From: a bacterium
GTDB taxonomy: Bacteria > Patescibacteriota > Minisyncoccia > UBA6257 > GWB1-50-10
Direction of reading: 5' to 3'
NCBI GenBank assembly: GCA_021825465.1
Contig: JAKAGX010000001.1
Coordinates: forward strand, 5,347 to 69,346
DNA: 64,000 bases
The position numbers were made by a program, and so were the translations under genes. Below are positions 24,522 to 51,449 of this stretch, one piece after another (position 1 is the stretch's first letter; every line of letters begins with the position of its first letter). The notes under the pieces were generated by a model, which saw only the letters and a program-made list of their open reading frames with translations, ran no database searches and was not told the DNA's origin.

Positions 24522-26303
24522 CTAAGCCACCTCCTTCTGGTAGCATTCCTCGCAATACACGATCTCGGAGCGATCGGGCGAATAGGTCGTCTCGAATTCG
24601 TTCGGACAATGCTCCGCGCCGTGGACATGGGATGCGGTATTGCGGTAGACGCCGTTCACGCTCGCCGATCCTCCGCACTGGCACTTTCCTTTCCAAAGCT
24701 TCAACGGATTTCTCTGGCTCAAGCGCTCGTAGTGCCGGCAATTCGAACAAAGGTGCGGCAGAGGCAGGTTGAATTTTCGGTAGAAGCCCAACTCGGCGGG
24801 GGTCACTTTGAAAGCCGTCGCACATTGATCGTTGCATTTCCCGCCGTGAGCGCAGCTTATGACCTCATTCAAGATCGAATCTTTTACTTCCGCTATCGTA
24901 TCGGGCAAATCATCCGATCTCAAGGTCACGGTGTATTGCTTTTCGGACGATTCGCGCCATTTATATCCCAGTTTCATCGCCTCATCGTGACTCAAGGGGT
25001 GAAGCTCGGCCGCCACCGTCTCGTTGTACGAGAAAGGTGATATTTCCGAGGGGAAAAATTCGCCATAGCCGTACTTCCTGCCGCCTTTGTCCATATACGG
25101 CATATCATCCATATGTTTCCGTATTTGCGGAATGAGCTTTTCATACTCCTCTTTTTCATATTGTTTGTTCAAGATGCAGTACTGCTTATTCCTCAATCCT
25201 ACGCATCCGAAGAGGTTCGACGAATCGTGGCAATTATATGAATAAAGCGTGTCGCGGCAAGAGCGCACGAAGCGCGAATAATAAATCCCGCTTCCCGGAT
25301 AAACAGTCGACGAGTCTACCACCCGTTCGGTGTTCAAACCCGAATGGTCGCAATCGAAGCAATCTTTCACTTCGGAATAAATAAGCCAAAGGTAACTTGA
25401 ATCTTCCGCTCCGCCGAATACGCTGAACGAGCGACGGCAATTTTTAGCGCCTTCGAGGTCGTCTCCGCTCGAATTGACGCTTCGGATGACCTTCGCGAAT
25501 CTCCTGGGATATTTCAACGATTCGCTCCGGAATCGTTCTTTCATTTTTGAAAGCGACCGGTACCCCCGGGGCATCAATTCCTTGACCTTTTCCTCGTACT
25601 CATCTTTCGAATATTCCTTGTTGAAAATGCAATACGACTTGTTGTTCAAATTCGTGCACCCGAAACAATGGTGGCAGTTGCGGCAGTTGAACAAAAACGC
25701 GCTGTCGTAGCAACCTTCGCAATATCTGCTCCACAACAACCGACTGGAAGAAATGCAATCGACGGTCTCGTAATTGAATTCGCTTTTTGAAATCCAATAG
25801 CAATCCATGCATTCTTTGCAATTGAAGATGAAAGCGGAGTACAGCGAGTTTTCATTGAAATCCCCGCCGATCACGAGATAGCAATCCTTATTGCCTTCGG
25901 TGATGCTGCAGTATTCGCTCCGCACGCCTCGCTGGTTCATAAGCGCCACATCCGGAACCTCTTGCCAGAGATCGCGCAGCTGCTCAAAGAAGTTTCGGGA
26001 AAAATTGTAATTCCTGCCGTACACCATCGGATCCCATGAATCTCCCCACCAGAACGCTTGATCGTAAATACGCTGCGGATTGTCCGGGGAAAAAAGCGAG
26101 AGGATCGTTTCGTTGTGCCCCGGCGCATCGCACGTTTTCCAATAAAGGATGCGCTCGTTCCGGAAGGTCATTCTCCGCTCGAGCCGGCAATCCGGACAAA
26201 AGGTCGGCGGAGGAACTTGCATCTTTTCATAAAAAGCGAAATCCTCGGCATAAACCATGAATTCCTTTTTGCAGTTTTGGCATTGCCGAATTTCCGAAGT
26301 CAT
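24522..26303 (-). CDS. Cys-rich multi-zinc-ribbon repeat protein, paralog 1
   Basis: CQNC..PPTFCPDCR, FFEQ, two CxGxxNKxYCI blocks, YGEFFP, C-terminal VYCEECY. Confidence 0.88.
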   Translation of the reverse strand: MTSEIRQCQNCKKEFMVYAEDFAFYEKMQVPPPTFCPDCRLERRMTFRNERILYWKTCDAPGHNETILSLFSPDNPQRIYDQAFWWGDSWDPMVYGRNYNFSRNFFEQLRDLWQEVPDVALMNQRGVRSEYCSITEGNKDCYLVIGGDFNENSLYSAFIFNCKECMDCYWISKSEFNYETVDCISSSRLLWSRYCEGCYDSAFLFNCRNCHHCFGCTNLNNKSYCIFNKEYSKDEYEEKVKELMPRGYRSLSKMKERFRSESLKYPRRFAKVIRSVNSSGDDLEGAKNCRRSFSVFGGAEDSSYLWLIYSEVKDCFDCDHSGLNTERVVDSSTVYPGSGIYYSRFVRSCRDTLYSYNCHDSSNLFGCVGLRNKQYCILNKQYEKEEYEKLIPQIRKHMDDMPYMDKGGRKYGYGEFFPSEISPFSYNETVAAELHPLSHDEAMKLGYKWRESSEKQYTVTLRSDDLPDTIAEVKDSILNEVISCAHGGKCNDQCATAFKVTPAELGFYRKFNLPLPHLCSNCRHYERLSQRNPLKLWKGKCQCGGSASVNGVYRNTASHVHGAEHCPNEFETTYSPDRSEIVYCEECYQKEVA

Positions 26304-26312
26304 ATGTTTATT

Positions 26313-28055: not shown

Positions 28056-29863
28056 ACAACTTCACTGTTATAGCAGGATTCGCAGTACACGATCTCTTTT
28101 CTCTCCGGCGCATACGGCGTCTCAAATTCACTCGGGCAACGATCGTTACCGTGAGTATGCTTGGAGAGGTTGGTATAAATGCCATTCTCTGATCTTTCGC
28201 CGACACATTGACACCGACGATGCCAGAGCTTGAGCGGCTTCCGCTGCTCTAAACGCTTAGCATGGCGACAGCTGAAGCAGAGGTGCGGCAATGGCAACCC
28301 CATCCGCCGGTAGAATGAGAGTTCCTGCGGGATGATCCTGAACGCCGCTGTGCACTGCTCGTTGCACTCCCCCCGGTGCGCACATTCGATGATCTCATCC
28401 ACGATCGAATCCTTCGCGTCATCTATGCTGTCGGGTGTATCGGCCTCCTTCATCGTCACCTGGTATTTTTTTTCTTCCGGCTCTTTCCACTTGAATCCGC
28501 GGCTCAGAGCGTCACTTTCATTCAACGGAAAATATTCTTGTGCGATCGTCTCATTGTAGACGAAGGGGCTAAGTTCCGGCGGGAAGAACTCGCCGTATTT
28601 ATAGATCCTCTCTTTCGAGTCAACATAGGGCATCTCGTTCATCTGCTCAACGATCCGGGGAATCAACTCTTCATATTCTTCTTTCGAGTACTGCTTGTTC
28701 AAAATGCAGTATTGTTTGTTCCGGAGACCCGCACACCCGAAGAGATTCGAGGAATCATAGCAGTTCTCCGAATAGGCCACATTGGCGTTGTTCCAGCTCA
28801 CATACGCAAATTTAGTGGAGGAATTAATGGCTCCGCCGATGATCTCATAAGAGAAAAACAAATTCCCTCCCACTTGCATGCAATCATAGTCGTTCTCGGC
28901 ATTCCATCCGCAAATGGTCAAATATTTGCCGTGTGAAGCCCCCACCCCTCCGCCGAATTCCGCGGAACTCGACGATCCGATGAAAAAACACATCCTCAGG
29001 TCATTGGAATTCTCAATGTCGTTCCCCGTCACGTTCTCGGATTTTGTGATGTGAGCGAATTTCATCGGCTGTGAGAGGATAAATGCCTTGAATTTTCCTT
29101 TGTATTCCTCAAGGATCTTGTACGATTTTAAATCGACTTCCGAGAATCTCCTTTCATATTCCTCCTTGGTGAGCTGCTCGTTGAACCAGCAGTATTGTTT
29201 GTTCCGAAGGCCCGCACACCCGAAGCAGTTCGAACATCCCCGGCAGTCATAAAGGAACCATGAGTTGAGACAATTGTCGCAATAGCGGCCGAAAGCAACG
29301 TGATATGATTTTGTGCTGTCCAGGAGTTCATAGCACTTTTCGCTTTCGTTTATGAAAAAGGTATCCACGCTGTCCTTGCTGTAGAGAGCGGTATTGGTAT
29401 ACATGACGTCTTCGCTGTTGTATCCGCCGATCTCCATATAGCAATTCTTGTGATTACTGACATTGTTGCAGTACTCGCTCCCGACGGAGTTCCGGTTCAT
29501 CATACTGATGCGCGGCACTTTGAGCATCAAATCGTGAAACTGCTCGAAGAAGGGCCTGGAAAAATCGTAATCCCGCCCGAAATCCATCGGATTCCAGCCG
29601 TCGGACCACCAAAATTTCGCATCATAGACCGTGAACGGCGAATTGTTCGGATAGAGGGAAATGATGTCCTCCGCATGCCCCGGGGCGCCACACTTTCGTT
29701 TGTAGAGCATCTTTTCGTTCCGCCACGTCATTCTTCTCATTGACCGGCATTCCGGGCACCACGTGGGCGGTGGGACCTGTATCCTCTCGTAGAATGCGAA
29801 ATCCTCCGGATCAATCACGAATTCCTCTTTGCAGTTTTGGCAGGTTCTGGTTTCTTGTTTCAT
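28052..29863 (-). CDS. Cys-rich multi-zinc-ribbon repeat protein, paralog 3
   Basis: Same architecture; ATGA overlaps with both neighbours. Confidence 0.88.
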   Translation of the reverse strand: MKQETRTCQNCKEEFVIDPEDFAFYERIQVPPPTWCPECRSMRRMTWRNEKMLYKRKCGAPGHAEDIISLYPNNSPFTVYDAKFWWSDGWNPMDFGRDYDFSRPFFEQFHDLMLKVPRISMMNRNSVGSEYCNNVSNHKNCYMEIGGYNSEDVMYTNTALYSKDSVDTFFINESEKCYELLDSTKSYHVAFGRYCDNCLNSWFLYDCRGCSNCFGCAGLRNKQYCWFNEQLTKEEYERRFSEVDLKSYKILEEYKGKFKAFILSQPMKFAHITKSENVTGNDIENSNDLRMCFFIGSSSSAEFGGGVGASHGKYLTICGWNAENDYDCMQVGGNLFFSYEIIGGAINSSTKFAYVSWNNANVAYSENCYDSSNLFGCAGLRNKQYCILNKQYSKEEYEELIPRIVEQMNEMPYVDSKERIYKYGEFFPPELSPFVYNETIAQEYFPLNESDALSRGFKWKEPEEKKYQVTMKEADTPDSIDDAKDSIVDEIIECAHRGECNEQCTAAFRIIPQELSFYRRMGLPLPHLCFSCRHAKRLEQRKPLKLWHRRCQCVGERSENGIYTNLSKHTHGNDRCPSEFETPYAPERKEIVYCESCYNSEVV

Positions 29864-31581
29864 ACAATCTCTGCATTAAAACACTGCTCGCAATAGATGA
29901 CTTCTTTTCTCTCCGGCGCGTACGAGGTTTCGAACTCGTTAGAGCATCTTCCCTCTCCGTGGAAATGGGTTTTCTTGTCGCACATGCACGAGCGATGGTA
30001 GAGCTTCGGGGGGTTGACGCTCCGAAACCGCTCCCCGTGGCGGCACTCAAAGCACTTGCGGGGCAGGGCCGCATTTATCTTTTTCAAAAAATCGTATTCT
30101 TTCCCAATGATCTGGTACGGCTTACCACACGAGGAACACTCAATGATTTCTCTCGTAATTGAGTCCGGCGTTTCCTTGATATCATCCGGCAGCTCGCCCG
30201 CTTTCTTGGTAATCGTGTGGCGCGGAGCATCCGCCTCGCGCCATGCAAAACCGCTCTCGGATGCTCTTTCCCTCGTGAGCGGGAAATAATCGTTCGCCAC
30301 CGTCTCGTTGTAGGCAAAAGGTGAAAGCTCAGTCGGAAAAAATTCACCGTAGCCGTACGTTCTCCCTCTCCCGTCCACGTACGGTACTTTCCCCATCTGC
30401 TCGATGATCTTCGGAATTAATGTTTTGTACTCTTCTTTGGAATACTGCTTGTTCAGGACGCAGTATTCCCGATTCCGGAGACCGATGCAACCGAAGAGAT
30501 TACTCGAGCCGTGACAATTCAAAGCATAACGGGCATCATTGGTACCGTAGACCGATCCCACAAAGTATTGTCGAGACGCCTCGACGCCGGAATCGAAGCC
30601 CTCATAGAGCAGCTCGCAATTTCCCCCCACGCCATAGCCGTCGTACGTATCAGTGGCAGAAAGGGCATTGGTGAGATATTTGCAGTCCTTCACGTTGCCG
30701 TACGAATCAAAACAAAAGCGCGAATCGGCGACATTATACAGCCGGTCGCCGGTCACATTGTTACAACTCACGAATGTCGCGTATTTCCTGATGGCGCCGA
30801 GCTTAAGGACCTCGAATTTTTTCTTCGTCTCCTCAAGCTGCCGGAAACTTCCCAAGTCGATCGCCGCCACTCTTTTCCCGTACTCCTCCCTGCTCAACTG
30901 CTCATTGAAGAAGCAGTAGGACTTATTCCGCAAATTCGTACACCCGAAGCAATCCGTGCATCCCTTGCAACCGAAGAGGAACCAAGAATCGGCGCAACCT
31001 TCCGATTCGGAGGAAAAGTGGACGTTAAACAGTTTGCTGCTCCCGACATCATATGAACACAGGCTGCAATTATTGATCGCAAAGGCGTCAACGATATCTT
31101 TTGACGCGTTGCAACGGGAGGCATAGCACACATTTTCGCCGTCCCACGATGCCGAGACGAGGTACGCATCTTTATACTCGCCGACATAATTCACATAACT
31201 GGAGTTCACTGTCCGCGCATTGAAGACCGCCGGCATCGGCACTTTCTTCAGAAGCTCCGCGAACTGCCCGAAGAATGGCCTCGAAAAATCATAGTCAGCA
31301 CCGAAAGCGAGCGGATCCCATGCGTCGCTCCACCAATAATCCCGATCGTATACCGTTATGCCCGAATCGGGCGCAAAACAGGAGATAACCGCCTTCCCCG
31401 TCGCCGCACATTTATTCCTGAAGAGCGTCCGTTCGTTCCGCCAGGCAAACCGACGCTGCATCCGGCATTCCGGGCACCAGGTTGGCGGTGGGACCTGTAT
31501 CCTCTCGTAGAATGCGAAATCCTCCGGTTCGATCGTGAACTCCTTCTTGCAGTTCTGGCACCGTCGCGTTTCCGAGGTCAT
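29860..31581 (-). CDS. Cys-rich multi-zinc-ribbon repeat protein, paralog 4
   Basis: Same conserved motifs. Confidence 0.88.
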   Translation of the reverse strand: MTSETRRCQNCKKEFTIEPEDFAFYERIQVPPPTWCPECRMQRRFAWRNERTLFRNKCAATGKAVISCFAPDSGITVYDRDYWWSDAWDPLAFGADYDFSRPFFGQFAELLKKVPMPAVFNARTVNSSYVNYVGEYKDAYLVSASWDGENVCYASRCNASKDIVDAFAINNCSLCSYDVGSSKLFNVHFSSESEGCADSWFLFGCKGCTDCFGCTNLRNKSYCFFNEQLSREEYGKRVAAIDLGSFRQLEETKKKFEVLKLGAIRKYATFVSCNNVTGDRLYNVADSRFCFDSYGNVKDCKYLTNALSATDTYDGYGVGGNCELLYEGFDSGVEASRQYFVGSVYGTNDARYALNCHGSSNLFGCIGLRNREYCVLNKQYSKEEYKTLIPKIIEQMGKVPYVDGRGRTYGYGEFFPTELSPFAYNETVANDYFPLTRERASESGFAWREADAPRHTITKKAGELPDDIKETPDSITREIIECSSCGKPYQIIGKEYDFLKKINAALPRKCFECRHGERFRSVNPPKLYHRSCMCDKKTHFHGEGRCSNEFETSYAPERKEVIYCEQCFNAEIV

Positions 31582-33528: not shown

Positions 33529-35313
33529 TCATACTTTCTCTTGCTGATAACACTCGGCACAGTAAATGATGTCCGGTTTCTCCGGAGAGAACGATGTTTC
33601 AAACTCGTTCGGGCAATGACCTTCGCCGTGGGCATGTTTTGAGAGGTTCGTATAAGTGCCGTTTTCCGACTTCGCTCCGCCACACTGGCATTTCCGATGC
33701 CACAGCTTGAATGGATTCCTTAATTTCAGGCGATTGGCGTTCCTACAGTTGGGACAAAGACGGGGCAAGGCCAAATTAAACTTGCGGTAAAAATCCAATT
33801 CATCCGCGATGATCTTGAAAGCCCCGGTACACTGATCGGTGCACTCTCCCTTATGTGCACAGCCGATCACTTCTTTCAAAATATCGTCAGCGACATCTTT
33901 GACATGGTCGGGCAGGTTCTCCGCTTCCACCGTGACAGTATGTTCTTTCTTTCCCAATTCCTTCCAGGGGTATTTTTGGACAGCCGCTTCCTCCTTTTTC
34001 AAGGGGAAATATTCCTCGGCAATCGTCTCGTTGTATGCGAAGGGCGAGATTTCACAGGGGAAAAATTCGCCATAAGCGTATTTTCTGCCGGCGGCATCGA
34101 CGTACGGCATGGCATTCATGTGCTCGACGATCTTCGGGACGAGGGCTTCATACTCTTCTTTGGAATATTGCTTGTTCAGAATGCAATATTCCCGGTTTCG
34201 AAGACCGACGCATCCGAAGAGATGAGAGGAAAAATGGCAACAGTAAGCATACTCCACATCATGATTGCCGTGAGCATAGACGGTGAATTTGTAGCGTGCA
34301 GCATTGATCCCCGAGTCAACGCCTTCATACAAAAGTTCGCCAATGCCGCCAAAACCGTACCCATCGTACGAATCCTTGAGGCCCTGGGCATGGATCGCAT
34401 ATTTTGAATCCTCGGTTTCGCCGTAACCGTCAAAGCAGAATTTGCAGTTTTTTGCATCGCCGACCTGGTCGCCCGTCGTGTCGACCGAACGGATGAGCGA
34501 CGCAAATTCCCGCGGGAATTTTCTGTCGAATTCGTCGAATTCTTTCTTGAATGCTTGGAGATTTTTATAACTTCCGAAATCGTATTTTACCCGTTCTTTT
34601 TGATACTCATCCTTCGAGTAAGGCTTGTTGAAAATATGATATCTCTTGTTCCTTAAATTGACGCACCCCAGCGATTCATTCACATTGGTGCAATGCCGCA
34701 AGAATGCCGAATCCATGCTCTCCCCCGCATCGAACGAGAAAAACACGCGATTGATATTGTCGCAGAGCGTATCATCGTAGCAAAGTTCGCATTTCAAGAC
34801 ATTGTAGAGATCCATCGAATCCTTTCCTTCCATAATGCCGCTTGAAAAAGAAACGTTTTCATTCATATATGACGCATAAAGGAGATAACAATCCTTGCAG
34901 TCGGCATTGTGGTTCCCGTAATCGCTCCGCGTAACGTTCGTATTCGCGAGATTCGGCAACGGCGCTCGGTGCAAGAGATCTCGGTACTGCTCGAAGAACG
35001 GCTTCGAAAAGTCATACTCGCGGCCCGATGCAAGATTGTCCCATTTGTCGCTCCACCAATAATCCCGGTCATAGACGACCATGTTGCTTTCGGGCGAAAA
35101 CATCGTGAGAAATTCCTTTCCCGTCGCCGCACACTTTCCTTTATAAAGGGTCCGTTCGTTTCTCCATATAAATCTCCTCTGCATCCTGCAATCCGGGCAA
35201 AATGTCGGCGGCGGGACCCGGATCTTCTCGTAAAACGCAAAATCGTCGGACTCGACCGTGAATTCCTTCTTACAATTCTGACATTGCCTTTTTTCCCTTT
35301 CTGTCATGCTCAT
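33529..35313 (-). CDS. Cys-rich multi-zinc-ribbon repeat protein, paralog 6
   Basis: Same conserved motifs; alternative start at 35307. Confidence 0.88.
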   Translation of the reverse strand: MSMTEREKRQCQNCKKEFTVESDDFAFYEKIRVPPPTFCPDCRMQRRFIWRNERTLYKGKCAATGKEFLTMFSPESNMVVYDRDYWWSDKWDNLASGREYDFSKPFFEQYRDLLHRAPLPNLANTNVTRSDYGNHNADCKDCYLLYASYMNENVSFSSGIMEGKDSMDLYNVLKCELCYDDTLCDNINRVFFSFDAGESMDSAFLRHCTNVNESLGCVNLRNKRYHIFNKPYSKDEYQKERVKYDFGSYKNLQAFKKEFDEFDRKFPREFASLIRSVDTTGDQVGDAKNCKFCFDGYGETEDSKYAIHAQGLKDSYDGYGFGGIGELLYEGVDSGINAARYKFTVYAHGNHDVEYAYCCHFSSHLFGCVGLRNREYCILNKQYSKEEYEALVPKIVEHMNAMPYVDAAGRKYAYGEFFPCEISPFAYNETIAEEYFPLKKEEAAVQKYPWKELGKKEHTVTVEAENLPDHVKDVADDILKEVIGCAHKGECTDQCTGAFKIIADELDFYRKFNLALPRLCPNCRNANRLKLRNPFKLWHRKCQCGGAKSENGTYTNLSKHAHGEGHCPNEFETSFSPEKPDIIYCAECYQQEKV

Positions 35314-35315
35314 TA

Positions 35316-36971
35316 CTATAATACCCTATCTTGATAACATTCTTCGCAGACGATTTTCTGATATCCCCACTCCGGCGGATAGTAATGGATGATCGGCCTC
35401 GAGCAGAAAAAGCACATTCCTTCATACGGCGTCGTGACCGTCAGGGGTTTCATGCGCTCCAGGTTGCGCCGATCTGGATGGCGGCTCGGCAAAGGTATGC
35501 CCTGTTCTTTATAAAACGCAAGTTCCTGAGGCGCTATGTTGAACCGCCATTTAGTTTCGGGGCAAACGATCGCTTGCTTCGAAAAATCGTTGTCGACGCC
35601 GTCAATGACATCCGGAACCTCATCGCCCGATATACCTTCATAGGCCTGGTCTTGAATGTCTTCCCACAAGCCGCCTTTTTCCTCTATGGATTCGCGCGTC
35701 TCGGGGAAATACATTTGCCCGGTCGACAGGTTGTATCCGCAGTAAGCCAGCGAATATGGGAAGAACGTCCCCCACGTTCCGTCGGCGGTCATTCGGTCTT
35801 TGATCTTTTTTACAAGATCGTTGTATTCCGACTCCGAATACTGCTTGTTCAAAATACAGTACTTCTTCTTCCGCAAGCCGACGCATCCGAAACAGTACTC
35901 GCATTCTTCGCAATATTCGAGGTAGGCGCTGTAGCGGCAATTGCCGCACCGGGACGTGGCAACGGTCCCATAATTATATCCATCCATCATGCTCAAAGCC
36001 GCGTTCTCGGCGATGGTGCCTGCCGCATGGACAACCTCGCGCTGTTCGTAGCCGCGAAGGAGATAGTAGCCATTCTCGGACTTTTGGGCGAAGTACGATT
36101 CTTTGCAATTCTTGCATTCTTCAAGGAAATTCCCGGTTGAATCGACAACTTTGAGGTTGCGGTCCGCCTTATGAATGACCTCGCGGGCGACGACATCGGC
36201 AAATTCCTTCTTCAATCGCTCGACCTCCCGCCTTGAGTTCAAGCGATACTCTTTCATCTTCTCAAAATATCCCTCCTTGGAATACTGCTTGTTCAGGATG
36301 CAGTATTGTTTATTCCTCAAATTCCAGCACATAAAGCAGTTCTTCACGTTCCGGCAATCATAGAGAAACGCGCTGTCCATACTGTCGCGCGCATCGAAGG
36401 AATGTCGGACCTTGTACGACTTGAAGCAATAGGTGCAATCATACGAACGCTCAACATCGAAGCAGAAGGTGAGATCCGTTGAATTTTTGCAATTCACCGT
36501 ACGGTAGGCATAGTTCACTTCTTCGCAGTCGAGCATCGATCGGCAGAGGTAGCAATTCTTGCAGCTCCAGGCATCGTCGCTCCAATCGCAATTCGTGCTC
36601 ATGGTCCCCGACCGGTGGGGATGCGGCGTTTTTCGCTGGACTTCCGCATACTGCTCGAAGAACGGCCGTGAGAAGTCATACGATCTGCCGTATTGCAACG
36701 GATCCCACACGTCCGACATCCACTCGTCGTAATCGTAGAGCGGGAAGGGCGTTTTTTCCGAGAACGTCGTGATGATGGTTTTCCCGGAGAGTGCCGACGT
36801 CGTTTTGCGGAATTTGCCGAAAACCCAGAAAGCCGTAAGGTTCTTCCAAATGCAAACATGACATTCCTGGGGCACCGGGATCCCGGTTTTTTCATAGAGA
36901 ACAAGACTGTCCGGCGGAACCGAGAATTCCTTTCTACACGTCTTACATATTTTTGTTTCTTCCCCTCCCAT
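35316..36971 (-). CDS. Cys-rich multi-zinc-ribbon repeat protein, paralog 7 (divergent)
   Basis: CKTC..PQECHVC, WDPLQYGRSYDFSRPFFEQ, YCILNKQY twice; ATG 7 nt after TATAGT. Confidence 0.86.
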   Translation of the reverse strand: MGGEETKICKTCRKEFSVPPDSLVLYEKTGIPVPQECHVCIWKNLTAFWVFGKFRKTTSALSGKTIITTFSEKTPFPLYDYDEWMSDVWDPLQYGRSYDFSRPFFEQYAEVQRKTPHPHRSGTMSTNCDWSDDAWSCKNCYLCRSMLDCEEVNYAYRTVNCKNSTDLTFCFDVERSYDCTYCFKSYKVRHSFDARDSMDSAFLYDCRNVKNCFMCWNLRNKQYCILNKQYSKEGYFEKMKEYRLNSRREVERLKKEFADVVAREVIHKADRNLKVVDSTGNFLEECKNCKESYFAQKSENGYYLLRGYEQREVVHAAGTIAENAALSMMDGYNYGTVATSRCGNCRYSAYLEYCEECEYCFGCVGLRKKKYCILNKQYSESEYNDLVKKIKDRMTADGTWGTFFPYSLAYCGYNLSTGQMYFPETRESIEEKGGLWEDIQDQAYEGISGDEVPDVIDGVDNDFSKQAIVCPETKWRFNIAPQELAFYKEQGIPLPSRHPDRRNLERMKPLTVTTPYEGMCFFCSRPIIHYYPPEWGYQKIVCEECYQDRVL

Positions 36972-39312: not shown

Positions 39313-39342
39313 ACTATAAGCTATTTTTACGTCATTTGTCAA
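39313..39342 (-). promoter_or_regulatory. sigma70-type promoter TTGACA-18-TATAGT
   Basis: tgtcaa at 39337-39342 and actata at 39313-39318. Confidence 0.6.
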
Positions 39343-40510
39343 CCTCCGTCCGCCTCTTGCCGAAAAAGCGGACGTAGAGATACATATTTGCGGCCATAAC
39401 GGCGCCATACGCAAAAAACGGGATATCAAGGAGTGCTGCATCCATGAGATAGCCGGCGAGCCCCGTGCCGGCCGAGGATGCCGCAAGCCGCGCAACTTGG
39501 TTCACGCCGAGCGCGCGGCCCATTTCATCGCCATCCACCCGGCGCGTAAGTTCCGCCTGCTGGATCGGAAGCGCCATGATGCGGAGCGCCGGCCCAAAAA
39601 CGTACACGAAAACGGCAAAAGGCAGGAAACGAATGATCGGGAAAGCGACGAAGAGAGCCGTTCCGATCCCCCTGCTCCACACCATGCTTTTTACGAATCC
39701 GAGATGTTTTTCGAGAAGCGGCGCCGCGAGAATGGCAACGGACCCGACAACGCCCGAGAGAAAAGCGTATTCCGCCATTTGTGATTTTGGAATGTTATAA
39801 ACCAAAAGAAAGAACGGGATGAGGAACGGAACGATGAGGCCTTGCGAAAATCCGTTCAAAATGCCGGTCAAGGTGAATTTTCCGATGGTCGTTTTCGTCT
39901 TCAAAACGCGGAGCTTGCCCTTGGATTCCGTAACTTCGATGAACGGCAATGCAACGACACCCAATGCCGCGACAACGGTCGCAATGAGAAAAATATCTTG
40001 GACCGAGAAAACTTTCGCAAAGAGCGCGCCGACGGCCGCCACGATGCCCGAGAGGAAGGTAAAGAAGGAAAAGTATTTCGTCCGTTTTTCGCTCGGCGTG
40101 AGTTCCGTGATGACGGTGTTTTGGATCGGTTGGACCGCACCGCCGATGCCGCCGCCGGCCAAGGATCCCGTCGCGGAATACCCCCCCACCATCGCTGCAA
40201 GGAATACCACCCACAAACTCGATGAAAAATATACCAAGGCGGAGCTCACCGGCAGGAGGGCGCTTGCGATGAAAAGTGTCCCCCGCTTCCCCCACACGTC
40301 GGTCGTGATGCCGGCAAGGAAGCTCAAGACTGCCGTCGCGATCGTCGCCGCGACGTAAATAAGGCCGATCATCCCGGCGCTTTGATGAAGGTCGACCAAC
40401 ACGTAGTACGGAAATGCAATATTGATCATCCCGGCCGCAATGCTCCGGGTGATCCTTGAAACCATAATAAGGTAAATGCCTTTTTTCTTGGGCCTTAGTT
40501 CAGTTTCCAC
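39332..40510 (-). CDS. MFS transporter
   Basis: About 12 TM helices, motif A variant GITTDVWGKRG; GTG start inferred from upstream TATAAT. Confidence 0.85.
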   Translation of the reverse strand: METELRPKKKGIYLIMVSRITRSIAAGMINIAFPYYVLVDLHQSAGMIGLIYVAATIATAVLSFLAGITTDVWGKRGTLFIASALLPVSSALVYFSSSLWVVFLAAMVGGYSATGSLAGGGIGGAVQPIQNTVITELTPSEKRTKYFSFFTFLSGIVAAVGALFAKVFSVQDIFLIATVVAALGVVALPFIEVTESKGKLRVLKTKTTIGKFTLTGILNGFSQGLIVPFLIPFFLLVYNIPKSQMAEYAFLSGVVGSVAILAAPLLEKHLGFVKSMVWSRGIGTALFVAFPIIRFLPFAVFVYVFGPALRIMALPIQQAELTRRVDGDEMGRALGVNQVARLAASSAGTGLAGYLMDAALLDIPFFAYGAVMAANMYLYVRFFGKRRTEVDK

Positions 40511-40559
40511 AGTAAGAACGATTATACCATACCGAGCGGAGTCGGGTGGTATAATAAGA

Positions 40560-40778
40560 ATGATGAAAAGCCGCGAGAATGCCATTTACGACACCGCCAA
40601 ACTCGCCAAATTCTTCGGCGTGACCGAACGAACCGTTCTCGAATGGTGCCGGAGAGGAAAGCTTCCGGCTTTCAAGATCGGCAAACAATGGAGGGTGCGG
40701 GTTATCGATCTCCAAAAAATGATCGATCGCAAGGTGACGACCCGGCGAGATTCGCGCTATACCACTTCGCTGTTGTAG
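40560..40778 (+). CDS. excisionase/MerR-like helix-turn-helix DNA-binding protein
   Basis: YDTAKLAKFFGVTERTVLEWCRRGKLPAFKIGKQWRV; TGGTATAAT just upstream. Confidence 0.85.
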   Translation: MMKSRENAIYDTAKLAKFFGVTERTVLEWCRRGKLPAFKIGKQWRVRVIDLQKMIDRKVTTRRDSRYTTSLL

Positions 40779-42448
40779 CACTGTTCACAGTACACGATCT
40801 CGGGTCTCTCCGGAGAAAAGCTCGTCTCGAATTCATTGGGACACTTCCCCGAATGGCCGTGGTTCGGCCTGTCGCACATGCACGAACGATGCCAGAGCTT
40901 TACGGGATTTTTGAGCCTCAAACGATCCTTAAGCCGGCAGAAAAAACATTTCCGAGGAACCGGGATGCCGTTCCGCTTGTAGAATGCGAGTTCCTCGGCG
41001 AGGATCTTGTAATTCCTGCTGCATTCGGCGCAGGCAAGGATCTCATTCACGATCGAGTCCGGAACACCGGCGATCGCGTCGGGGATCTCCCGCATCGTTT
41101 CTTTCCCCGTCGTGAACTGAAGCTTGTCCTGCCACCGGTACCCCTCCGCGAGCGCTTCTTCTTTCATAAGCGGATAGCTATCTTCTGCCAGCGTTTCGTT
41201 GTATCCGAATGTCGAGAGCGATGCCGGAAAAAATTCCCCCCATTCCCCCTTCCTTTTCATATCCTCGACGATTTCCGTCTTGATTTTTTCATATTCCTCC
41301 CTCGAATATTGCTTGTTTAGGATGCAATACTTGGCACTTTTGAGCCCCACGCACCCGAAGAGTTCTTCCGACGATTGGCAGCTGTCGGAGTACCAGACAT
41401 TCCGATCCTTGTGGCAATACGAAGTGAAATGCGTATTATACGAGTTGTCCGGATTGATCCCTTCATAGCACAGTTCCTGCTCGCCGCCGCTTGCACAATC
41501 ATAGCTGTCTTTGATGGTGTCGCCGTTCTCGAAGAACTTCGAATCTTCAACGCGGACGGCATTCCAAGAATTCTTGGCGTTTTTGGAATTCACGAGATAG
41601 TTGCCGGTGCAGTTGACCGAGTTCATAAAATTCGCCGGACGGCGCGGAAATCCCAGAATAAAATCGAAGAATTCCTTCTTGGCCCGCTCCGATCCGCTCC
41701 ACGTATCGAGCTGGTACTCCCCGAGGATTTTCTCATATTCTTCCTTCGAATATTGCTGATTTTTCACACAGTACTTTTTATGACGGAGGCCGATCGACAT
41801 GAAACAGCTAGTGCAATCCTTGCAATCGTAGCAGAACGCGCAATCGATGAGCGATTCGGAATTGAAAACGAACCGGCACGAATTACTGTCCCCCACGTAG
41901 ATCGATTCGTAGATATTCCGCGCATTCGAAAAGACCGTCATCACGTCCACCATATCCTTCGCGTTCACCATATGGTAGCAGTAGAGGCAGTTTTCCACCT
42001 TCCATGAGTTCATGGTGAGATAGCAGTTTTTGCCGAGGGCGAAATAGTTCGTATATTCGCACCCGACGCTCGCGATGTTGTTGTCGTTCAGGATCGCGAG
42101 AGCCGGCACGGCATCGAGAAGCTTCCGATATTGTTCGAAAAACGGCCGTGAAGGATCATACTCACGCCCGTACTGCCCGGGGTCCCAGCCGTCGCCCCAC
42201 CAGCACTTGTTGCAATAGATCGGAACGGGTTTCTCCGGCGAGTAGATGGAGATGATCTTCCGGCCGCAGAGCCCGCATTCGCGGTTGTAGAAATTGTAGT
42301 CGTTCCGCCACGCGAGCCGCCGCTGTCGCCGGCAGTCAGGACAAAAAGTCGGCGCCGGCACCCCGATGCGGTTGTAAAAAGAAAAGTCGTCGGGTTCGAC
42401 GATGAAATCCCGATGACAATTTTGACAAACCTTCTTTTCGGAAAGCAT
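40757..42448 (-). CDS. Cys-rich multi-zinc-ribbon repeat protein, paralog 9
   Basis: Same conserved motifs. Confidence 0.88.
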   Translation of the reverse strand: MLSEKKVCQNCHRDFIVEPDDFSFYNRIGVPAPTFCPDCRRQRRLAWRNDYNFYNRECGLCGRKIISIYSPEKPVPIYCNKCWWGDGWDPGQYGREYDPSRPFFEQYRKLLDAVPALAILNDNNIASVGCEYTNYFALGKNCYLTMNSWKVENCLYCYHMVNAKDMVDVMTVFSNARNIYESIYVGDSNSCRFVFNSESLIDCAFCYDCKDCTSCFMSIGLRHKKYCVKNQQYSKEEYEKILGEYQLDTWSGSERAKKEFFDFILGFPRRPANFMNSVNCTGNYLVNSKNAKNSWNAVRVEDSKFFENGDTIKDSYDCASGGEQELCYEGINPDNSYNTHFTSYCHKDRNVWYSDSCQSSEELFGCVGLKSAKYCILNKQYSREEYEKIKTEIVEDMKRKGEWGEFFPASLSTFGYNETLAEDSYPLMKEEALAEGYRWQDKLQFTTGKETMREIPDAIAGVPDSIVNEILACAECSRNYKILAEELAFYKRNGIPVPRKCFFCRLKDRLRLKNPVKLWHRSCMCDRPNHGHSGKCPNEFETSFSPERPEIVYCEQCYNSEVV

Positions 42449-42688
42449 ATGTTTATTTTACCCTAAATCACGATCCAAAACGAAAAGACGTTGAATTATT
42501 TTAATTTATCGATCGATCATCATTATGTCGAGTTATCCCCAAAATTTCGGTCCCCGAGGGGTTTTAAAGGAGAGAGGGAGCCGAAATTTGAAGTGCTACA
42601 TTTCCAACGATCGTATTTTTTGTGGCACTGAGATTGAGGGCTCATACCAGTAATTGAAAAATATCCAAAAGAGAAGGAAAATAATGGC

Positions 42689-43921
42689 ATGAACCCGGAA
42701 CGGATAACCCAGCCTATAGAAACCGAGAATAGGGAGGAACGAGAAAGAGAACTCGCCAAGCGGCTGACTGCCCTTGAGGTCCATTTTGCGAACGTACGGT
42801 ACCAGGATCAAGTTACCGAAAGAGAAAGGATCTATTCCGATTTCAGTGATTCACTTAATAAAAACACTCCCATCATAAGAAGGATGCTTAATAGATATTC
42901 CAATACCGTCCATGGAGATAAGGAGGAGAACCAGAAATTGAAATCATTCGCAACTTTTTTCCTCCACGAAGTTGATAGGATATATCAAGAAACGCCGAAT
43001 CGGGAACGGAGGGAGGAACTGATCACTCAGTATGTCTTCGATGCTTACGCCAATTTAAAAAAAGAAGAACCGAGCAAAATCGAAAGAATGATAGAAAAAG
43101 ACACAACCATCGGAGTTATAAAAGTGGAGCCCGGAACACACGAAAACCGCCGTATGGCGGAAGCGGGATTCGGCCCGGAGGAGGAATTCCTACCGATCCA
43201 CTTCCCCGCCTTCTACGAGAGCGGGCCGGAAAAATCGCTGCTTACAGAAATCAATGCGTCATTCACCCAACTTGCCGAAATAGTCCCACAAAAATATCCC
43301 GAAGCACGGGGAATCATCGGCGAATCGTGGCTCCTTTCCCTTCCCGCCGCAGAACGACTCGGATTCAAAAAGGTCATGACGCTCGAAAACCGGTTCGACG
43401 GCGACAGCCTCTGGTCCCAATTCATCGATCAAAACGGAAACATCAGCAAAAGCCGGTTCGATGAGTTCATGAGAACGGGCAAGCCGCCATATGCCGTGAC
43501 GCTCAGCTACATTCCCATCGAAGAATTCTTGAGCAAATACCTTCCGTCGGAGAAAAAAGGAGAGATACTGCTGAAGGAAATAGACCCGGAATGGAAAAAA
43601 GAAGACGCCCGAGAACTGGAAAAATACACGGACGAAGCTCACCGGCTAAGAAGCGACTGGGGAAACTTCGTTGAAGACAAGAATCTTTCTGTGGAAGAAT
43701 TCATGAAAACCTACCCCGCCATCGTGAGCATCATGACCAAAGCAGGTTGCTATGACGACCTCCTGAAGGTTCTCTCCGAGGCAAAAAACAGAAAACACAA
43801 TCTCCAAGAAATGGTGAAAATAATGCCTGCGGAAAGCGAAAGAATCGAGAGAGCGTACACGGAATACGTAAAGAATCTAAAAAGCAGAAAATACCGGGAC
43901 CGTAAGGTTTTTATAAAATAG
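42689..43921 (+). CDS. hypothetical protein (charged, A-rich codon usage)
   Basis: 410 aa Glu/Lys-rich ORF, opposite strand to the array. Confidence 0.78.
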   Translation: MNPERITQPIETENREERERELAKRLTALEVHFANVRYQDQVTERERIYSDFSDSLNKNTPIIRRMLNRYSNTVHGDKEENQKLKSFATFFLHEVDRIYQETPNRERREELITQYVFDAYANLKKEEPSKIERMIEKDTTIGVIKVEPGTHENRRMAEAGFGPEEEFLPIHFPAFYESGPEKSLLTEINASFTQLAEIVPQKYPEARGIIGESWLLSLPAAERLGFKKVMTLENRFDGDSLWSQFIDQNGNISKSRFDEFMRTGKPPYAVTLSYIPIEEFLSKYLPSEKKGEILLKEIDPEWKKEDARELEKYTDEAHRLRSDWGNFVEDKNLSVEEFMKTYPAIVSIMTKAGCYDDLLKVLSEAKNRKHNLQEMVKIMPAESERIERAYTEYVKNLKSRKYRDRKVFIK

Positions 43922-44549
43922 TCTTCAGCTCCGACAGACTATTTACCGTTTTCCAAGCAGTCTTTTCGAGTTCCTCCGAATCAGGTGATTTAAGAGCAAT
44001 GCCCCGCATTGTTTCAAAAAGACTTATATCATTCACGCTGTCGCCCACAGCAATACACTCCTCAGGTCTCAAATCCCGCTCATCGCAGAATTTCTCGAAC
44101 TGTTCCAGCTTCTTGACAGCTTGGTTTTTGAAATATTCGAAGTCAACCAACTTTCCATCTTTATCCCAAACGAGCGTAGCATTTGCGAAATAGCAATCAA
44201 TACCCAACTTCCTCGCCACGATCTCCGCAAAGAGGTCCGTGGAGCCAGTGATGAGACACGGCACAATCTTTCTCTCCTCCAAGCAACCGATGATTTCCTT
44301 CGCACCATCCGCAAGAGGAATATCGTCGTATAAAGATGTAAAGAATTCTTTATTATCCTTTTCTGTCCTTGCCCACATATCGAGCAGTTTGTGCTTTGAA
44401 TCTTCATAATCATCGCCGTCCCCATCCAGCATGTCGCGGTAAAACTGGCGGTGATCATCAACAGACGCGCCCATGGCCTCTGTGATCGCGATCCACGAAT
44501 TCCCCTTCACGAGCGTCCCGTCAATGTCAAAGATAACCGCTTTTATCAT
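43911..44549 (-). CDS. HAD family hydrolase (SerB-like, subfamily IB)
   Basis: FDIDGTL motif I, ITGS motif II, K, VGDSVND motif IV; ATGA overlap with paralog 10. Confidence 0.88.
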   Translation of the reverse strand: MIKAVIFDIDGTLVKGNSWIAITEAMGASVDDHRQFYRDMLDGDGDDYEDSKHKLLDMWARTEKDNKEFFTSLYDDIPLADGAKEIIGCLEERKIVPCLITGSTDLFAEIVARKLGIDCYFANATLVWDKDGKLVDFEYFKNQAVKKLEQFEKFCDERDLRPEECIAVGDSVNDISLFETMRGIALKSPDSEELEKTAWKTVNSLSELKTIL

Positions 44550-46246
44550 AAAACAATAGATTGATAGCACTTGTTGCAATAAACGATCGAGGCCTCCTTC
44601 TCGGGATACCGCGAAACGAACTGGATGCCGCACTTCGAGCAGGTGCGCGGATGCCGAGCCATATTTCCGAGCCACAGTTTGAATTTCTCATTGACGCGGC
44701 AGAAGGGACATTCACGGGGCAGCGGCAGGTCCATGTGGCGCAGGAACGAGAGTTCCGCAGGAATCAGTTTGAATCCCCGTCCGCATTTCGAGCAACCGAT
44801 AACCTCATTCAAAATACCATCCTTCGCATCCCGGATGTGGTCAGGCAGATCGGCGGCCGGAATCGTCGTTTGAAATTCACTCTTCGGCAGATTGCGCCAC
44901 TCATACCCCCTTTCTGCGGCTTTTTCTCTCGAGAGCGGGACAAAACAGTTGGCATCCGATTCGTTGTAGGCGTTCGGCGAAAGCTCGACGGGAAAAAACT
45001 CGCCATACCGGTATTCCCGCCCCTTCTTGTCCCGGTAAACATTCGCGTCCATATCCTTTTTGATCCGCTCGGCCAGTTTTTTATACTCTTCCTTCGGATA
45101 TTTCTTGTTCAAGATGCAATACTCCGCCTTCTTCATCCCGGCACAGCCGAAACAATGGGAACTCGAGGTAAGCGTTTTGCAGTATTCCAAATCTTCTCCC
45201 TTCATAACCTCCTGGCTGAATCTGATGTTCGAACTTTGATTGCCGACAACCGAAGCGTCATACGAAAGAGAAAGGTTTTCTCCCCAATAGGTTATGTCGT
45301 AGCTGTCCGCTATGCCGTCGGATACCATGCTCACGTACCGGCAGTTCTCGCCGTCATTCACCTGGAACGAATCTTTGACGTTCTTGGAATCATAAATGTG
45401 CGCTCCCCAGCAATCGACGTTCCGGTCGCCGAATTCCGCTTTCGGAATCTGCGTCGCCCAAAACGCTTCGGCTTCATGGAGCGCTCTTTGGTATCCCTCG
45501 TACGACCCCAGATCGTATTTCGCGATCTCTTTTTGATATTCTTCTTTCGAGTATTGCTTGTTCTTGATGCAATATTTCTTGTTCTTGACGCTCGCACACA
45601 TACGGCAATCCTGGCAATTCGAAGCATCTTTCATGAAAGCGCAGTTCAAGAGTTCCACGGCGTAGTTCCGGAGGCCGATCCCGCGATTGCATCTCCATGC
45701 ATGCATCGAATCATAGAGCCATTCCGAATTGAGGCAGAGAGTGCAATCCCAAACGGATTTATCATGTTCCACATAAAACCCGTATGCGGAGTCCTCGACG
45801 TAATTCGCCTGGTAGAGAAGATAGCAATTTTTGAGATTCGCGGCATTGCTCGTATAGGGGGAATCCTTCGATGTCTGGATGTCGACGGATAACCCCAAAA
45901 GCGGCACTTTGTGCATCAAGTCGTCGAACTGTTCAAGAAACGGCCGAGAAGGATCATATTCCCTCCCCTCCGCATACTGGTCCCATCCGTCACCCCACCA
46001 GCATTCGGGACAATAAACAACATAGGGCGCATCGGGCGCATACACCGAGATCACGTTTTTCTTGCAAAGATCGCACCTCCGTTTGAAGAGATTGAAGGTA
46101 TTGAACCATGCGAGCCGCCTTTCGAGCCGACACTCGGGGCAAAAGGTCGGCGGCGGGACTTGGATTCGCTCATAGAACGAGAAATCCTCGGGTTCGATGG
46201 TGAACTCCTTTTTGCAGTTTTGGCAGGTTTTGATTTCAGTATTCAT
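44546..46246 (-). CDS. Cys-rich multi-zinc-ribbon repeat protein, paralog 10
   Basis: Same architecture; C-terminal CSKC-x17-CNKC. Confidence 0.88.
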   Translation of the reverse strand: MNTEIKTCQNCKKEFTIEPEDFSFYERIQVPPPTFCPECRLERRLAWFNTFNLFKRRCDLCKKNVISVYAPDAPYVVYCPECWWGDGWDQYAEGREYDPSRPFLEQFDDLMHKVPLLGLSVDIQTSKDSPYTSNAANLKNCYLLYQANYVEDSAYGFYVEHDKSVWDCTLCLNSEWLYDSMHAWRCNRGIGLRNYAVELLNCAFMKDASNCQDCRMCASVKNKKYCIKNKQYSKEEYQKEIAKYDLGSYEGYQRALHEAEAFWATQIPKAEFGDRNVDCWGAHIYDSKNVKDSFQVNDGENCRYVSMVSDGIADSYDITYWGENLSLSYDASVVGNQSSNIRFSQEVMKGEDLEYCKTLTSSSHCFGCAGMKKAEYCILNKKYPKEEYKKLAERIKKDMDANVYRDKKGREYRYGEFFPVELSPNAYNESDANCFVPLSREKAAERGYEWRNLPKSEFQTTIPAADLPDHIRDAKDGILNEVIGCSKCGRGFKLIPAELSFLRHMDLPLPRECPFCRVNEKFKLWLGNMARHPRTCSKCGIQFVSRYPEKEASIVYCNKCYQSIVL

Positions 46247-49713: not shown

Positions 49714-49742
49714 TGGGTCATTCGTATATTGAAAATTGATAT

Positions 49743-51449
49743 CTATGCCGTCAATTCACTGTAGCATTTCTTGCAAAGGATGTTTTGGGCATCGTGATTA
49801 CTGATCGATGTCATAAATTCGGCCCCACACTTCGAACACGCTCTCTTTTCCATCTTCAAGTTATCGACCCATATATCGATCTTCTTATTGATCCTGCAAA
49901 AAGGACATTCGCGGGGCAACGGATAATTCATCTTCCGAAGGAACTCCAATTCATCCCTTGTTATTCTGAACCCCCGGCCGCATCGAGCGCAACCGATGAT
50001 CTCGCTTAAAATTGAATCCGGCGCATCCTTGATATGATCCGGCAGATCGGCGGCTTTTTTCGTCACCTCGTATTCTTTTTTTTCAAAAGCACGCCATCCG
50101 TAGCCTTCGTCGCGCGCATCGCGCTCGGTCATCGGAAAAAAATTTTGAGCCAACGTCTCGTTATATGCGAACGTGCTCATTTCGATCGGGAAGAATTCCC
50201 CATATCGATACACCCTGCCCTTCCGATCGGTGTACGGCATGTCCATCATATGTTGGCGTATTTTCGGAACGAGAGCATCGTATTCCTCGGGGGTATATTG
50301 CTTGTTTAAAATGCAATACTGCCCCTTTTTAAGGGAAATGGATCCGAAGACATGTGCCCCGCCGTAAATGAGAAATGAATATTCGGAGTCGACCAAATTC
50401 AATCCCGACCCATAATTGAATTTCACTTCGCTCGCGTTTTCACCGACATTCGGCGAATCGTAGGAAAGCGTGAGATTATTTCCCCAGCTTGTAATGTCGT
50501 AGCAATCTTTCGTTCCCGGAAGGTAGAGCATCGCGAGATACTTTGAATTTTCTGCGCCCAAAACTTCGTAGCATTCCTTGCAATTCCGCGATTGGAACAC
50601 GTTGTTCCCCGTGCAGTTTTCGGTAAATTCATCGAAGACCGGCTTCGGCGGGAACTTTTTCCAATGCTCTTCGGCAAGCTTCTGGATCTCTTGATACTCG
50701 CGATACGACCCGAGGTCCCATCTTTTGATCTCTTTGAAATATTCTTCTTTTGAATACGGCTTGTTGAAAATATAGTATTTTTTATTCCTTAAATTGACCG
50801 AAGCGAAACAATTTTGGCATCCCCACGAATATTTCAAGAAGTATGAATCGATCGACTCCGTTACTTGCCCTCGAAGGCCGGCACATCGGGTGCATCGGTA
50901 TGTATGCATCGAATCGTAGCAAAGCTCCGAATTCATGATGAGCGATGAGTCGAAGACCGACCTGCTCTCTGTGACGTAAAAGCCGTACGCGGAATCCTCG
51001 TCGAAATCGGCGTGAAAGAGCATATAGACATTCTTGTTATTGCCGCTCAAGTGTGAATACGGCGAGGTCTTCAGGGTCATAAAATCCGTCGAGAGCGCCG
51101 GAAGCGGGGCTTCGCGCACAAGGTCCTTGAATTGTTCGAAGAAGGGCCGCGAAAAATCGTAATCGCGGCCGTAATCGCGGGGATCCCACGTATCACTGAA
51201 CCAGCAAGGCAAACAAAAAACCCGGTAGGGTGCGTCAGGCGCGTAAACAGAAATAGTATCCTTGCTGCACAAGTCGCACTTCCGCTTATAGAGGTTGATG
51301 ACATTCATAAACGCCAAGCGCCGCTTTTCGCGGCACTCGGGACAAAACGTCGGCGGAGGGACTTTTATCCTCTCATAAAAAGCGAGATCCTCAGGCTCAA
51401 TGACAAATTCGCGGCGGCAGTTCTGGCAAACTTCTTTCCGGGGACCCAT
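49743..51449 (-). CDS. Cys-rich multi-zinc-ribbon repeat protein, paralog 13
   Basis: Same architecture; C-terminal CSKC-x17-CKKC. Confidence 0.88.
   Translation of the reverse strand: MGPRKEVCQNCRREFVIEPEDLAFYERIKVPPPTFCPECREKRRLAFMNVINLYKRKCDLCSKDTISVYAPDAPYRVFCLPCWFSDTWDPRDYGRDYDFSRPFFEQFKDLVREAPLPALSTDFMTLKTSPYSHLSGNNKNVYMLFHADFDEDSAYGFYVTESRSVFDSSLIMNSELCYDSMHTYRCTRCAGLRGQVTESIDSYFLKYSWGCQNCFASVNLRNKKYYIFNKPYSKEEYFKEIKRWDLGSYREYQEIQKLAEEHWKKFPPKPVFDEFTENCTGNNVFQSRNCKECYEVLGAENSKYLAMLYLPGTKDCYDITSWGNNLTLSYDSPNVGENASEVKFNYGSGLNLVDSEYSFLIYGGAHVFGSISLKKGQYCILNKQYTPEEYDALVPKIRQHMMDMPYTDRKGRVYRYGEFFPIEMSTFAYNETLAQNFFPMTERDARDEGYGWRAFEKKEYEVTKKAADLPDHIKDAPDSILSEIIGCARCGRGFRITRDELEFLRKMNYPLPRECPFCRINKKIDIWVDNLKMEKRACSKCGAEFMTSISNHDAQNILCKKCYSELTA

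Follow-up and report, generated by a model that had tools for sequence, protein, structure and literature searches.

A diversified array of zinc-module proteins in a Patescibacteriota genome and its probable partnership with a VirD4-like ATPase

Introduction

What does a bacterium with a small genome do with thirteen diverged copies of one cysteine-rich protein, and which other protein do these copies work with? The question is raised by a stretch of 64,000 nucleotides (nt) of the Patescibacteriota assembly GCA_021825465.1 (contig JAKAGX010000001.1, positions 5,347 to 69,346; the whole stretch is hereafter the window, and coordinates are window positions). An initial annotation had described an array of co-oriented multi-zinc-finger paralogs in it and had proposed a beta-solenoid scaffold with variable faces. 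Here we describe the array and its evolution, and argue that the family is very probably the functional partner of one subfamily of VirD4-like ATPases, whose gene, ATPase A, lies beside the array.

Results

The array holds thirteen intact paralogs

Thirteen open reading frames (ORFs) of the family, 553-603 amino acids (aa) long, all on the minus strand and without internal stops, lie between 24522 and 51449 (Table 1). They fill 22,584 of the 26,928 nt of the array span and 3.4% of the 664-kb assembly, which confirms the annotated gene count, orientation and coverage of about 22 of 27 kb; the initial annotation had remarked that this is a large outlay for what looks like a reduced genome. Adjacent copies are spaced by -4 to 114 nt, and four unrelated genes break up the array: a 147-aa ORF, a major facilitator superfamily (MFS) transporter, a 410-aa ORF on the plus strand and a haloacid dehalogenase (HAD) hydrolase. 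Copy number 14 of the family is on contig C21, away from the array. Pairwise identity among the 13 paralogs is 29-50% (mean 41%). All the motifs named in the initial annotation recur in the alignment, the first FGC..LRNK block being looser than the second. The highest 19-residue hydropathy mean is 1.11, in agreement with the reported absence of a signal peptide or transmembrane (TM) segment.

The array is not an assembly artefact. Concatenation was rejected because copies within the 20 largest repeat families shown mostly agree at 60-80%, none being both long and near-identical, and because two genomes of the same genus, G006 and G008, carry an array between the same flanking genes. Contigs of sequencing run X1, which may be the source sample, tile 34200-46175 without one differing letter.

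Table 1. Coordinates, strand and supporting detail of the features of the window
Feature	Position	Strand	Detail
Split comEC (competence and metallo-beta-lactamase (MBL) domains)	12612-14893	-	Two genes beyond ATPase B
Type-B VirD4-like ATPase (ATPase B), far side of locus	16827-18551	-	Present also in genomes without the family
Family copy 1, 593 aa	24522-26303	-	78% ortholog in G008
Family copy 2, 580 aa	26313-28055	-	Orthologs: G006 91%, G008 88%
Family copy 3, 603 aa	28052-29863	-	Best match 52% among fetched relatives
Family copy 4, 573 aa, modelled copy	29860-31581	-	AlphaFold2 (AF2) model, register, internal duplication
Copy 4, C zinc module	29863-30147	-	AF2 model/register
Copy 4, solenoid 2 (predicted)	30487-30765	-	AF2 model/register
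Copy 4, solenoid 1 (predicted)	30940-31221	-	AF2 model/register
Copy 4, N zinc module	31297-31581	-	AF2 model/register
Family copy 5, 588 aa	31696-33462	-	Closest relatives 62-63%, in other genera
Family copy 6, 594 aa	33529-35313	-	Orthologs: G006 82%, G003 81%
Family copy 7, 553 aa, most divergent, 2/4 zinc sites lost	35316-36977	-	Intact 89% ortholog in G008, dN/dS 0.07
Family copy 8, 587 aa, mosaic relative to G006 ortholog	36996-38759	-	Synonymous differences 0.07-0.18 in centre, 0.52-0.55 at ends
Passenger genes (147-aa ORF, MFS transporter, 410-aa ORF (+), HAD hydrolase)	38821-44549	.	ORF/profile calls
Family copy 9, 563 aa	40757-42448	-	G006 ortholog 87%
Family copy 10, 566 aa	44546-46246	-	Orthologs in G008, G003: 83-85%
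Family copy 11, 581 aa	46243-47988	-	Best match 53%, in another genus
Family copy 12, 566 aa	48013-49713	-	G006 95%, G003 86%
Family copy 13, 568 aa	49743-51449	-	89-92% in G003, G006, G008
62-aa membrane ORF	51452-51640	-	Between ATPase A and array
cutA	51690-51995	-	Between ATPase A and array
Type-A VirD4/TrwB-like ATPase (ATPase A), 484 aa, no TM, proposed dedicated partner	52033-53487	-	TrwB_AAD_bind, T4SS-DNA_transf and TraG-D_C above cut-off
ATPase A, C-terminal tail, residues 442-484, predicted docking peptide	52036-52164	-	Acidic stretch, then P-hydrophobic-hydrophobic end; motif counts in text
ATPase A, inferred all-alpha domain, residues 132-245	52753-53094	-	Boundaries inferred from coupling-protein layout
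179-aa membrane protein, RNxxxH motif	53497-54036	-	Not family-specific; in 321/351 class genomes
475-aa protein, N-terminal hydrophobic part	54040-55467	-	Homologous to N-part of fused type-A ATPases of distant lineages; in non-carriers too
Sigma70_r4 + HARE-HTH protein	55506-56522	-	Directly upstream of 475-aa gene in carriers and non-carriers

Zinc modules flank two predicted beta-solenoids

The N- and C-terminal zinc modules are mutually homologous (hhalign 99.8%), as are the two repeat blocks between them (99.95%). Pfam gave only sub-threshold matches to zf_Tbcl and zf_Tbcl_2, whole-protein scores staying under the curated cut-offs; zf_Tbcl lies at the start of all 14 copies, five of them at or over the cut-off. 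NCBIfam and PDB sequence searches yielded nothing useful for the family, and the unnamed phrog_15341 matched 4 of the 13 copies (best 7e-9). The four zinc sites retain all four cysteines in 13, 6, 11 and 12 of the 13 copies, respectively; the annotated C-terminal zinc ribbons have counterparts at the N-terminus, but four-cysteine sites are not kept in every copy. Arginines R40, R43, R44, R514 and R518 of the zinc modules are invariant.

An AF2 model of copy 4, built on a 148-row alignment, reached a predicted local distance difference test (pLDDT) of 91.5 and a predicted template modelling score (pTM) of 0.92, with strand-rich blocks at about residues 121-224 and 264-375, each followed by helices. 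Each family protein is predicted to consist of a zinc module at either end and two beta-solenoids of 12-residue coils, and the model supports the scaffold proposed initially. In the repeat profile, every third residue of the coil is small and predicted to point inward. Cysteine, of which each protein has 26-38, makes up 39% and 26% of inward solenoid residues and 0-1% of outward ones, and the inward cysteines interchange freely with Ser, Val or Ala. Among outward positions, a conserved face (1.8-1.9 bits entropy) can be told from a variable face (3.3-3.4 bits), a contrast that is partly circular because the register was set from the same profile, for solenoid 2 by hand; the ortholog comparison below is free of this circularity.

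Foldseek against PDB and BFVD gave no match at E up to 0.001 with the whole model, not cut into domains, as the query, which shows neither a new fold nor the absence of a known one; the best VIA-align Z was 4.1. Profile, PDB-sequence and fold searches were without a match to any characterised family, as the initial annotation had surmised. Of long homologs only two were found, and both consist of family units fused in tandem; P0391 and P0392 are single ORFs with three and two whole family units, respectively, head to tail.

Subtypes are fixed between orthologs and turn over as cassettes

The solenoids are the least conserved region among the 13 paralogs (30%) and the best conserved among orthologs (93.8 and 91.8%, with nonsynonymous to synonymous ratios, dN/dS, of 0.04 and 0.06). 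On the variable face of solenoids 1 and 2, identity is 13.9 and 12.3% between paralogs and 95.8 and 92.2% between orthologs, compared with 83.7% outside the solenoids. Per-gene dN/dS is 0.06-0.22 across 17 ortholog pairs, which are not independent and in which dS often exceeds 1. The low solenoid dN/dS rejects diversifying selection of the arms-race kind. Of the variable faces proposed initially, what stands is that variability clusters on one face; that face is not subject to ongoing hypervariation. Since it is conserved in orthologs and divergent in paralogs, the subtypes would be fixed specificity classes, each with a fixed ligand.

Array content differs sharply between close relatives. In G006, nine tested flanking genes are 92.5-99.1% identical to those of the window, but its array of 10 full-length copies has orthologs (82-95%) to only 6 of the 13 window copies (copies on other contigs left out), and dS is 0.37-1.52 in five of six family pairs versus 0.09-0.29 in eight of the nine flanking genes. 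The nine-copy array of G008 has orthologs to 5 of the 13. In an abundant strain from another study, the MFS gene is joined to a different family copy. The few shared orthologs, the high family dS, the mosaic copy 8 and this strain variation point to gain, loss and replacement by recombination, and indicate that members are exchanged between close relatives as cassettes. Passenger genes travel with the cassettes: within 42689-44549, the 410-aa ORF adjoins family copies in G008, and in G007 it does so together with the HAD gene, at 57-63% identity.

A type-A VirD4-like ATPase accompanies the family

The ATPase A gene lies 584 nt upstream of the array. Its product has a P-loop nucleotide-binding domain with Walker A and B motifs and TrwB (1e9r) as its best solved relative; no N-terminal TM anchor was seen in the chain. 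ATPase B lies about 6 kb beyond the array, and VirD4-like ATPases in general occur in 30 of 31 relatives. A third VirD4-like ATPase of this assembly (contig C16, 8-2200; about 800 aa in relatives) shares 40% identity with type A and is not linked to the array.

The family is present in 14 of the 31 relatives, 16 of 300 genomes sampled across the phylum and 44 of 350 sampled across the class, the two larger samples overlapping in some genomes. With type A defined by E up to 1e-140 in the phylum sample, above the scores of type B, and by 1e-138 in the class sample, it was found in 14 of 16 phylum-sample carriers (10 families) versus 3 of 284 non-carriers, two of these three being type B by best hit and tree. 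In the class sample it was found in 39 of 44 carriers versus 11 of 306 non-carriers; the latter comprise one type B, seven ATPases that lack the C-terminal tail described below and three that have it. The 75 named loci come from the 80 best matches, many of them from one lineage. Each of the 22 type-A genes in these loci has a family gene on the same strand at most 900 nt away. Within 600 nt of a family gene are 16 of 20 type-B genes, 6 of 16 dnaJ genes and none of 16 dnaK genes. The 23 type-A-specific conserved residues include 12 of the 114 residues of the inferred all-alpha domain versus 7 of the 267 in the nucleotide-binding parts.

The acidic tail of type A is mostly missing where the family is missing

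Type-A ATPases end in a variable-length linker, an acidic stretch, a proline and two hydrophobic residues. This motif is present in 22 of 22 type-A proteins of the named loci and 0 of 19 type-B proteins, and its background rate in this genome is 5 of 809 long frames. The tail was present in all 30 carriers read and absent from 12 of 15 non-carriers; this count covers 9 of the 39 class-sample carriers and leaves out G171, whose frame ends near residue 390, and G601, at a contig end, in which the tail is present. Tailless orthologs lie in the same gene context and are 44-73% identical to ATPase A of the window; their DPHG, Walker B or RK motifs are often changed, and their median end branch is 0.53 versus 0.08 for tailed sequences. 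G337 has kept 73% identity in the core and lost the tail. Identity to ATPase A in family f148 is 72-73% for carriers and 47-56% for non-carriers, with neighbouring genes diverged to a similar degree. Within the genus, G002, which lacks the family and has DUF6938 directly after ATPase A, has 82/79% identity in secD/secF and 62% in ATPase A; the corresponding values in the carrier G001 are 84/84% and 94%.

In many relatives (L036, L022, L016, L089) the type-B ATPase carries a zf_Tbcl_2 finger above the cut-off, the same module as at the family ends. There is evidence against the tail as a ligand of this finger: type B has the finger in five tailless genomes and has lost it in this genus.

Secretion genes, distribution and neighbouring genes

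No relaxase or type IV secretion system (T4SS) gene was found in the window. A VirB4-like gene occurs in all four carriers tested and in the one non-carrier tested, whereas a search of the present assembly, which is 91% complete, gave none; in the closed genome G001, virB4 is far from the family locus (115 kb versus 365 kb). Among 2,918 Patescibacteria genomes, 5,713 VirD4-like genes were counted, of which only 148 lie near virB4, and their role is described as open in the accessible part of that report (PMC12102498).

The family is very large: scoring of 8,000 clusters (90% identity) assigned 7,976 to it, and 2,387 representatives at 50% identity match it with E up to 1e-30. Almost all of the named homologs come from Patescibacteria. 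Five of the 75 loci (L031, L039, L054, L074, L098) come from records labelled Bacteroidales, Gammaproteobacteria or Burkholderiales; L098 is likely mislabelled because its dnaJ/ATPase layout is that of Nomurabacteria. Sequencing runs holding at least 0.42 of the stretch come from mine drainage, tailings and sediment (three studies), and titles of other carrier records include groundwater isolates. None of the runs listed as containing the stretch is an RNA run, which speaks neither for nor against expression. A viral origin was rejected: the 99 pattern matches in viral contigs include a single fragment.

A literature search that left most subscription journals and supplements outside its scope found no description of the family, although tables of candidate phyla radiation (CPR) protein families may list it unnamed; the accessible parts of 10.1101/335083 and PMC6851277 hold nothing on it. 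An account of arrayed genes beside a Saccharibacteria T4SS was looked for in the accessible part of PMC10633639 and not found there. Neither the family nor its pairing with ATPase A fits a described system.

Among the neighbours, the 179-aa protein has an N-terminal membrane segment, no Pfam hit and a conserved HxxRNxxxH motif, which we take to be HEPN-like; it is an unnamed near-core gene and was rejected as a dedicated effector on its distribution (Table 1). Two nucleotides separate the 62-aa membrane ORF from the first copy downstream of it. A 10/12 promoter-like site (51678-51650) precedes the ORF, which, among the fetched loci, was seen elsewhere only in four genomes of the genus; the promoter and terminator scan was near the shuffle level. 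Genes that we presume from their sequence to be TrmB-like regulators (L047, L053, L054, L060, L062, L071) lie at most 600 nt from family genes in 6 of 9 cases. The split comEC is conserved in family f1 relatives and occurs in only 1 of the 75 wider loci.

Discussion

Co-occurrence, adjacency and the tail make it very probable that the family and ATPase A are functional partners. How they would work together is a more tentative matter. The account we prefer, plausible though it may prove wrong, treats the family copies as interchangeable specificity subunits of the type-A ATPase: their common parts, probably the arginine-bearing zinc modules, would dock on the acidic tail and the all-alpha domain, the subtype-specific solenoid face would bind cargo, and the motor would then pull or unfold the cargo or pass it to a membrane channel. 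Docking, contact surfaces, cargo and the connection to secretion are here proposed by analogy; a link of the family and ATPase A to a T4SS is possible. Acidic tails of type IV coupling proteins (T4CPs) are known to bind TraM and IcmSW, and their all-alpha domain to confer substrate specificity, according to the accessible parts of PMC7434980 and PMC8740702. An extension that we consider doubtful would see a programmable motor, a dedicated VirD4-like ATPase with a chromosomal cassette library of zinc-capped solenoid receptors that have fixed ligand faces and are exchanged between strains by recombination. If true, the choice of macromolecules sent to the host or taken from it would be made by this motor, and one class of the orphan coupling proteins of Patescibacteria would gain a function. 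One VirD4-like subfamily can here be linked with a particular protein family as its probable partner and with a short motif as the candidate docking site, and a rigid scaffold with one swappable face would be of interest as a natural binder library.

Several observations weigh against a partnership of adaptor and motor. Carriers clump by family, so that the two-by-two counts overstate the association. Type A lies within 10 kb in only 22 of the 75 loci, many copies lying elsewhere, and no cargo gene is conserved beside the array. Carriers without a detected type A exist (G004, G022, G322, G343, G596, G618), as do ones in which its frame ends near residue 390 (G171) or is partial (G557, G606), all of them fragmented assemblies. 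Conversely, an intact tailed ATPase is found in the non-carriers G295 and G515, with no family hit, and in G418, beside a family remnant. In G002, two genes upstream of ATPase A are also more diverged (48/44% versus 65/64%). The history of the tail is compatible with fewer losses than the counts imply: a mixture-model tree requires three changes, a single clade of 11 of the 12 tailless sequences (FastTree 0.92) is not rejected by the approximately unbiased test (p-AU 0.167), LG+G4 rejects G002 from its own genus clade (p 0.0004), and independent-pair tests had too few pairs. The tailless form may be partly one exchanged lineage rather than the product of repeated decay.

The same co-occurrence, tail and adjacency would be expected if the family members were themselves exported effectors, recruited by ATPase A via the zinc modules and passed through a T4SS into the host, where the variable face would bind a conserved target. 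We regard this as unlikely, if deserving of serious attention. In X-T4SS effectors, a terminal domain common to the set does mediate binding to the all-alpha domain of VirD4 (PMC8740702, accessible part), all four carriers tested have a VirB4-like gene, and a patchy, strain-variable content fits host range; were it true, the pairing would be a variant of known T4SS substrate sets. However, a single rigid predicted body with up to four zinc sites would probably make a poor export cargo, no catalytic or toxin domain is present, the long homologs being self-fusions, virB4 is distant in G001 and present in a non-carrier too, and the variable face is under strong purifying selection, which is not what effectors in a host arms race show. 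An improbable alternative is that the copies act inside the cell as sensors for proteins of phages or mobile elements, each subtype seeing a conserved foreign fold and switching on ATPase A in defence. Cytoplasmic repeat proteins with a patchy distribution, cassette gain and loss and a fixed ligand face per subtype would suit such a role, and ATPase A has weak PADLOC matches (mad8 1.7e-13, HerA 4e-7), but these are generic ATPase matches that type B shares, and PADLOC has none for three of three family copies and four neighbours. The locus, moreover, lies among housekeeping genes (secDF, dnaK/dnaJ, cysS), and its only nuclease-like neighbour, the RNxxxH protein, occurs independently of the family.

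We give little credence to the absence of any physical partnership, with the two genes co-inherited in an island or insertion hotspot and the family working by itself, one possibility being a regulator whose zinc ribbons bind nucleic acid. Kinship clumping, the dispersed copies, the exceptions in both directions and the possibility that tailless ATPases are one lineage would all be accommodated, and the presumed TrmB-like regulators, with others that we take to be PaaX-like, adjoin copies in other lineages. The linkage nevertheless holds across 10 families, split and fused ATPase forms and differing flanking genes, and neither the loss of the tail from an otherwise intact core, as in G337, nor the longer branches of tailless sequences would be expected from co-inheritance alone. 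Least credible is a metal sink, as the initial annotation had also considered, or a cysteine-based redox or Fe-S protein, expanded in metal-rich water. The cysteine content, the adjacent cutA and the mine drainage, tailings and sediment runs are in its favour, but solenoid cysteines lie on a predicted inward ladder and are freely replaced, 13 distinct conserved faces would not be needed, other carriers include groundwater isolates, and cutA is found in only 5 of the 75 loci.

Comparison with known systems

The adaptor reading has its nearest parallels in F TraD-TraM and Legionella DotL-IcmSW, whose VirD4/TrwB-type ATPases have, like ATPase A, an acidic C-terminal extension, which would likewise recruit the partner here, and specificity residues in the all-alpha domain (PMC7434980, accessible part). 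Unlike TraD and DotL, ATPase A is chromosomal, without TM segment and far from virB4, and its proposed partner is a swappable array of unrelated fold rather than one fixed adaptor. Pfam, NCBIfam, PDB sequence and fold searches gave no homology of the family to a known T4CP adaptor, an unlisted fold being possible. X-T4SS effectors resemble the family in being a set of proteins that have a terminal module in common and are served by a single VirD4 (PMC8740702, accessible part), but the family is without an XVIPCD match (Pfam, 13 of 13 copies), a toxin domain or a conserved immunity-like partner, and its variable part is a predicted solenoid face.

At the level of modules, both family ends carry zf_Tbcl (PF13451) and zf_Tbcl_2, or CxxC-x17-CxxC (PF23477, TIGR04272), four-cysteine treble-clef modules, in tandem, and the copy 4 model matches phage zinc-ribbon proteins at a root-mean-square deviation of 0.6-0.8 over 41-45 columns. 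Small archaeal CxxC-x17-CxxC proteins bind zinc by inductively coupled plasma mass spectrometry (PMC12704099, accessible part). Unlike in zf_Tbcl proteins, the zinc modules cover under a third of the family protein. The Tenebrio antifreeze protein (1ezg), the ryegrass ice-binding protein (3ult) and TibA (4q1q) show a weak fold likeness (Z 3.2-4.1, within the chance range) and share the 12-residue coil with an inward Cys/Ser ladder that is predicted for the family. The family differs from ice-binding beta-solenoids in having no regular Thr face, its outward faces being variable or aromatic/acidic, and in being cytoplasmic, with no signal or TM segment and with two solenoids and zinc caps.

The layout as a whole may be compared with type I restriction. 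Its HsdS subunit has two variable specificity domains, conserved helical spacers and an internal duplication, is changed by recombination swaps, and serves a motor. The family would have an analogous layout, with no sequence or fold match to HsdS in the profile, PADLOC and fold searches and no hsdM or hsdR in the locus.

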